From the NCBI RefSeq assembly GCF_024700885.2, contig NZ_CP117016.1: a stretch of 64,000 bases of DNA, one strand, 5' to 3'. A program made the translations under genes and the position numbers. The notes under the pieces are model-generated. The model made no database searches. It was not told the DNA's origin and saw nothing but the letters and a program-made list of their open reading frames with translations. Positions 33,660-33,770 of this stretch are shown here, piece by piece. Numbering within the stretch: the first letter of the stretch is position 1; every line of letters starts with the position of its first letter. Source of the stretch: Escherichia coli. Its GTDB lineage: Bacteria > Pseudomonadota > Gammaproteobacteria > Enterobacterales > Enterobacteriaceae.

Positions 33660-33770
33660 TTAAATGTGAATTACCGCACACATTATTAAATACGATGGGT
33701 TAAATGTTCATAATGACGCATGAAATCACGTTTCACTTTCGAATTATGAGCGAATATGCGCGAAATCAAA
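33660..33770. promoter_or_regulatory. Divergent glpTQ / glpACB control region: candidate CRP site and GlpR operator repeats
   Basis: TGTGA-N6-GCACA at 33665-33680 (CRP-like); tandem TTCGAAT/ATGTTCAT-like half-sites at 33702-33767 (GlpR-like). Confidence 0.5.

Follow-up and report, generated by a model that had tools for sequence, protein, structure and literature searches.

Genes and shared spacer of the glp locus

We analysed a 64-kb stretch of Escherichia coli DNA (hereafter the window) around the divergent glp genes. The glycerol-3-phosphate transporter gene glpT (32196..33554, minus strand) corresponds to K-12 b2240 and matches the NCBIfam equivalog NF008433 with 976 bits. It is followed by glpQ (31115-32191), which also has an NCBIfam equivalog match. 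On the other side, glpA (33827-35455, plus strand; NCBIfam equivalog) corresponds to K-12 b2241 and belongs to the anaerobic dehydrogenase operon glpACB, with glpB (35445-36704) and glpC (36701-37891) found downstream as further NCBIfam equivalogs. The ATG codons of glpT (33554) and glpA (33827) enclose an intergenic spacer of 272 bp (33555-33826). This spacer segment is 100% identical to that of E. coli strain 7/2, and the 272-bp segment is found in 5,419 of 5,426 complete genomes. An Rfam search of the control region returned zero family matches. A simple sigma-70 scan gave one match, not above chance, as is expected with activator-dependent promoters.

With one genome scanned per species, 80 glpA loci were found, 65 of which have a divergent glpT-glpA pair with a spacer of 249-276 bp; the alignment used throughout comprises 67 distinct enterobacterial glpT-glpA spacers. 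The conserved blocks are the glpT ribosome-binding region, the glpT -10, the CRP site and a long block at 33704-33775, together with TGGCTAAAT at 33789-33797 (60/67 spacers) and AAACGAAC at 33804-33811. The motifs first noticed in this region, TGTGA-N6-GCACA (33665-33680), ATGTTCAT (33704-33711) and TTCGAAT (33738-33744), are all present at these positions and lie inside the spacer.

The glpT promoter and its CRP site

The supplement of Mendoza-Vargas 2009 (5' RACE and 454 reads) gives a glpT start at -77, equal to the known glpTp, with the -10 box CTTAACAT. Placed onto the window sequence, this transcription start falls at 33631 (minus strand), 77 nt upstream of the ATG. The published -10 box and the sequence together locate the -10 hexamer TAACAT at 33638..33643 (minus strand; ATGTTA on the plus strand). 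Its T, A and final T are conserved, and ATGTTA or ATGGTA is found in 50 of the 67 spacers. The glpT ribosome-binding site GGAGG (33561..33565, minus strand) lies inside the block GCCTCCGTGGCC, which is at least 90% conserved in the 67 spacers. This block (33560-33571), covering the ribosome-binding site and its flanks, is conserved across genera beyond what a Shine-Dalgarno sequence alone would need, and a terminator scan flagged a weak hairpin at the same positions.

The cAMP-CRP site TGTGAATTACCGCACA occupies 33665..33680 (22-mer 33663-33684) and consists of TGTGA (33665-33669), the spacer ATTACC and GCACA (33676-33680), with its centre at 33672.5. Because the published glpT start lies 77 nt from the ATG, at 33631, this centre is at -41.5. 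Across the 64-kb window, the pattern TGTGA-N6-KCACA has a single occurrence (0.24 expected), and the CRP core scores 9/10, a value reached at only 4 of 64,000 window positions. The core keeps 9/10 in 50 of the 67 orthologous spacers, and 62 of them have the same 21-bp distance between the CRP site and the -10. Kurabayashi et al. 2017 (PMC5352689) reported a cAMP-CRP DNase I footprint upstream of EHEC O157:H7 glpT, with 25 bp protected including AATGTGTGCGGCAATTCACATT, and glpT expression was undetectable in EHEC crp and cyaA mutants (PMC5352689). The EHEC AATGTGTGCGGCAATTCACATT is the reverse complement of window 33663-33684 save one spacer base (G in EHEC, A here). The numbering in PMC5352689, -30 to -52 for CRP and -123 to -136 for FNR, sits about 2 bp off relative to the start at 33631. 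The sequence at 33665-33680 is a class II CRP site for glpT, CRP binding and dependence being reported on near-identical EHEC DNA.

An array of GlpR operator-like sequences

Operators of the glp genes were reportedly mapped in three primary papers, Larson 1992, Yang 1997 and Zhao 1994. For scoring 20-mers we used WATGTTCGWTAWCGAACATW, which we take to be the GlpR consensus and which we verified on two K-12 examples, the palindrome TATGTTCGATAACGAACATT of glpD and the glpFK array. Spacer 20-mers matching it at 13 or more of 20 positions number four, against 0.83 in dinucleotide shuffles (fraction 0.008), and at 14 or more they number three, against 0.19 (fraction 0.001); at a lax threshold of at least 12/20, four are found against 3.05 in shuffles. 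The four scoring 20-mers start at 33663 (14/20), 33703 (13/20), 33755 (15/20) and 33795 (14/20), and a score of 15/20 is reached by only three 20-mers across the whole window.

The 20-mer AATGTTCATAATGACGCATG (33703..33722) holds ATGTTCAT. It is followed by the tandem GlpR-like half-sites CACTTTCGAA and TATGAGCGAA (33734..33754), which hold TTCGAAT and average 6.85 and 6.79 of 10 among the orthologues (background 3.2). The best operator-like 20-mer, TATGCGCGAAATCAAACAAT (33755..33774), overlaps the FNR box ATGCGCGAAATCAA, and the last, AATGGTAAAAAACGAACTTC (33795..33814), is kept where glpA is apart from glpT. Orthologue means over the 67 spacers are 15.6 at 33755, 12.8 at 33795, 12.6 at 33663 and 11.6 at 33703, compared to a background of 6.6, and 99% of orthologues score at least 13/20 at 33755. 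Conserved half-sites start at 33703, 33734, 33745 and 33755 in the forward direction and at 33673, 33765 and 33805 in reverse; those at 33734, 33745, 33755 and 33765 are spaced 10-11 bp. The positions 33735, 33755, 33775 and 33795 are in exact 20-bp register, but 33735 scores 10/20 and 33775 scores 7/20.

Could these motifs be a chance likeness in AT-rich intergenic DNA, with no regulatory role? GlpR operators are degenerate, the lax threshold barely departs from the shuffles, and a weight matrix matches coding DNA equally well. However, the enrichment over shuffles at the two stricter thresholds, the conservation of the sites across genera when the neighbouring spacer is not conserved, and published footprints and genetics supporting a role make a chance origin extremely unlikely. 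That log-odds matrix, built from six glpD/glpFK operators, was poorly specific and was dropped for single-site calls; our operator calls are based on consensus counts, shuffles and conservation.

The predicted tandem GlpR-like half-sites are real, being enriched over shuffles and conserved in the 67 spacers. The predicted interval of 33702-33767 contains valid sites but is too narrow, as the array continues to about 33814, beyond the end of the region first proposed. Exact operator boundaries, deduced from sequence and conservation, should be taken as approximate. As summarized in a secondary source, the glpT-glpA spacer holds four GlpR operators and forms a repression loop, and a RegulonDB summary gives 21 sites for five factors at glpTQ. 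The titles of Larson, Cantwell and van Loo-Bhattacharya 1992 and of Yang, Gerhardt and Larson 1997 refer to interaction or action at a distance. From this published action at distance, operators are expected outside 33660-33770, the interval to which the original prediction had confined the control region. The titles and summaries, with their distance interaction and loop, thus count partly against that confinement, and the sites inside the interval still stand.

Operator-like 20-mers also occur in coding sequence, at 33273-33325 and 33195-33214 in glpT and at 35323-35342 in glpA, with scores of 11-14/20 and orthologue means of 10.3-12. Counted along the glpT transcript, one glpT-internal pair (33288-33325) spans +307 to +344. 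As remote-operator candidates these were set aside, since they are not separable from coding constraint.

Overlap of the array with an FNR box and the glpA promoter

An FNR box, ATGCGCGAAATCAA (33756-33769), was missing from the original prediction and coincides with the best GlpR-like 20-mer (33755-33774). It scores 7/10 to TTGAT-N4-ATCAA, with only the right half perfect, and lies in the EHEC FNR footprint. In EHEC, a 70-bp FNR footprint begins 32 bp beyond the CRP site and contains TTGAT-TTCG-CGCAT (TTGATTTCGCGCAT) (PMC5352689), which is the reverse complement of window 33756-33769. Transferred to the window, the footprint would cover about 33717-33786. A second FNR-like half-site, GAAATCAC, can be read in the sequence at 33716..33729, inside the EHEC-reported footprint. 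The FNR-like half-sites GAAATCAC (33722-33729) and GAAATCAA (33762-33769) are exactly 40 bp apart, both in the EHEC-protected region. A published FNR ChIP study reported a peak at glpT/glpA in an hns stpA mutant only.

Further towards glpA, and again beyond the interval first proposed, lies the invariant block TGGCTAAAT (33789..33797, plus strand). The distance from ATCAA to CTAAAT is exactly 22 bp in 67/67 spacers, and a TG stands at the extended -10 position. The block may therefore be an extended -10 (TGgCTAAAT) of an FNR class II glpA promoter, with a start near 33804, which fits the class II geometry from the FNR box given the 22-bp spacing and the TG. Tandem GlpR operators could equally fix this spacing. 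Presumably, the glpT and glpA starts are 132 bp apart, which would put the glpA start near 33763; an alternative start near 33763/4, with GAATAT as its -10, fits this spacing. A glpA start is absent from the supplements of Kim 2012, Mendoza-Vargas 2009, Ettwiller 2016 and Federowicz 2014. A hairpin at 33780-33805, found by the repeat search, was rejected as an RNA structure on informal inspection of the alignment, in which the loop is conserved and the arms are not.

These overlaps raise the question of whether FNR sites and glpA core-promoter elements account for most of the repeats at 33702-33767, the GlpR likeness being incidental. Consistent with this, the FNR footprint includes ATGCGCGAAATCAA, GAAATCA occurs twice at a distance of 40 bp, and the fixed 22 bp from ATCAA to TGGCTAAAT is a usual spacing between an activator box and a -10. 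However, columns that are free in an FNR box are conserved here (TATG, and the CG in the box spacer), the left half of the Kluyvera sequence is a perfect GlpR half-site, and the four GlpR operators of the secondary-source summary lie in this same spacer. FNR and GlpR sites that overlap are, moreover, compatible with each other. We regard a purely incidental GlpR likeness as improbable.

Genomes with glpA apart from glpT

In Kluyvera, Pseudocitrobacter, Klebsiella spallanzanii and Xenorhabdus, glpA is found apart from glpT (loci L039, L041, L044, L045, L057-L061, L064, L069, L082 and L083 in our collection). Most of the separated enterobacterial glpA genes keep TTTCGA...CGAATATGTTCGATATCAAACAA upstream, several also keep AAAACGAACATT, and the Xenorhabdus glpA upstream region keeps the ATCAAACAA core only. 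The Kluyvera operator that overlaps the FNR box carries a perfect GlpR half-site, TATGTTCGAT, as its left half. No exact TGTGA-N6-NCACA is found upstream of glpA in the genomes having glpA apart from glpT. Because most separated enterobacterial glpA genes keep array sequence and none has an exact CRP match, we assign the operator/FNR array to the glpA module and the CRP site to the glpT module.

The original prediction had assigned catabolite control to both operons. For glpT this agrees with the -41.5 geometry and the EHEC footprint. For both operons it is overstated, because only one of the two glp operons is CRP-induced according to a secondary-source summary citing Larson 1992, and because separated glpA genes lack the exact CRP pattern. 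CRP mainly serves glpT, not both operons.

Sequence variation within Escherichia

The K-12 glpTQ-glpACB region (NC_000913.3 2352375-2352646) has the same genes and the same 272-bp spacer, 96.7% identical to that of the window. The CRP half-sites, the glpT -10, the FNR box and all operator-like blocks in 33712-33826 are identical. Nine bases differ, at 33608 (G here, A in K-12), 33673 (A/G), 33693, 33697-33701 (GGGTT/TTACA) and 33711. At 33673, in the CRP spacer, the window state is commoner across genera than that of K-12.

Most of these differences fall in a polymorphic block at 33693..33711 (window ACGATGGGTTAAATGTTCAT, K-12 AAGATTTACAAAATGTTCAA), with the CRP site on one side and the first operator-like 20-mer on the other. 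Among Escherichia genomes this stretch is not conserved, whereas the CRP half-sites and nearly every position in 33712-33826 show no variation. The window-like block is carried by about one-third of complete E. coli genomes and the K-12-like block by about two-thirds: a 60-bp query on the block matched 238 genomes exactly, 1,422 at 95-99% and 3,557 K-12-like genomes at 80-90%. The TTGTTACAgaaaTATGACA that other genera conserve at 33693-33711 has been lost from Escherichia, and the window form makes a second copy of TTAAATGT (33660 and 33700).

In E. coli strain 361, a blood isolate, an IS1A (locus L089, 1788-2485) has inserted into the spacer at about window 33652/3, separating the CRP site from the glpT -10. 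The insertion would be expected to cut glpT off from CRP control and could lower fosfomycin uptake.

A possible dual constraint on the CRP site

The 20-mer starting at 33663, which falls within the CRP 22-mer, matches the GlpR consensus at 14 of 20 positions. At 33676, 65 of the 67 orthologues have G (GCACA) and none has the T of the CRP consensus (TCACA), and this G falls within what would be the CG core of a GlpR half-site. Related sequences occur in K-12, ACCGCACA upstream of glpD (locus L002, about 2861-2868) and GGCACACACA in the glpFK array.

One explanation for these matches would be that TGTGA-N6-GCACA is chiefly a GlpR operator and that CRP acts elsewhere. We consider this very unlikely, given that the EHEC CRP-cAMP footprint falls on exactly this sequence, that glpT expression is lost in crp and cyaA mutants, and that the site has the -41.5 geometry with its fixed 21-bp distance to the -10. 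The non-consensus G at 33676 and the related K-12 sequences suggest a dual CRP/GlpR constraint. A composite CRP/GlpR site, in which case the 33697-33701 dimorphism might change the coupling of the glpT and glpA modules, is a doubtful but conceivable reading. If it is true, GlpR would compete with CRP at the glpT promoter, besides its action at a distance. The 1992 footprints may already include GlpR at the CRP site.

Regulatory model and implications

Very probably, the 272-bp spacer controls both divergent operons, glpTQ and glpACB, and works as in K-12. In this model, glpT would be transcribed leftward from 33631, using the -10 TAACAT without a usable -35, and the class II cAMP-CRP site at -41.5 would substitute for the -35 and be required for glpT expression. 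The right half of the spacer (about 33703-33814) would consist of degenerate half-sites for GlpR, a DeoR-family protein, of the type WATGTTCGWT, overlapping the glpA promoter and the FNR box. Without glycerol-3-phosphate, GlpR on these operators would block glpA directly and would repress glpT via cooperative or looping contacts, the looping being a presumption, and it might also compete with CRP at the CRP site. Glycerol-3-phosphate would release GlpR, and FNR would supply anaerobic activation.

The activator and repressor sites are intact, and the switch is a conventional one, already known biology. The central claim of the original prediction, that a CRP site and tandem GlpR-type half-sites lie in the divergent control region of glpTQ and glpACB, is upheld, and the layout is intact compared to K-12. 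That the strain carries an intact conventional glpT/glpA switch matters little beyond annotation. As glpT expression governs fosfomycin uptake, GlpT-dependent susceptibility is predicted to be normal with this CRP site and promoter intact. The cross-species comparison provides a clean phylogenetic footprint of this classic control region and separates the glpT elements from the glpA elements.

Comparison with known systems

A close experimental counterpart is EHEC O157:H7 (PMC5352689), whose CRP 22-mer aligns with window 33663-33684 and whose FNR motif aligns with 33756-33769. The half-site type seen here is that of the K-12 glpD and glpFK GlpR arrays, with which the spacer may also share a tandem 20-21-bp register. 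In K-12 glpFK, one operator overlaps a CRP-type GCACA sequence (TATGACGAGGCACACACATT), and K-12 glpD has ACCGCACA. The K-12 glpD palindrome is near-perfect (20/20), whereas the best site in the window scores 15/20 and doubles as an FNR box. At class II CRP promoters such as galP1, CRP at -41.5 replaces the -35 and expression is CRP-dependent. Compared to such promoters, glpT differs in having GCACA as its right half-site in nearly all 67 orthologues and TCACA in none.
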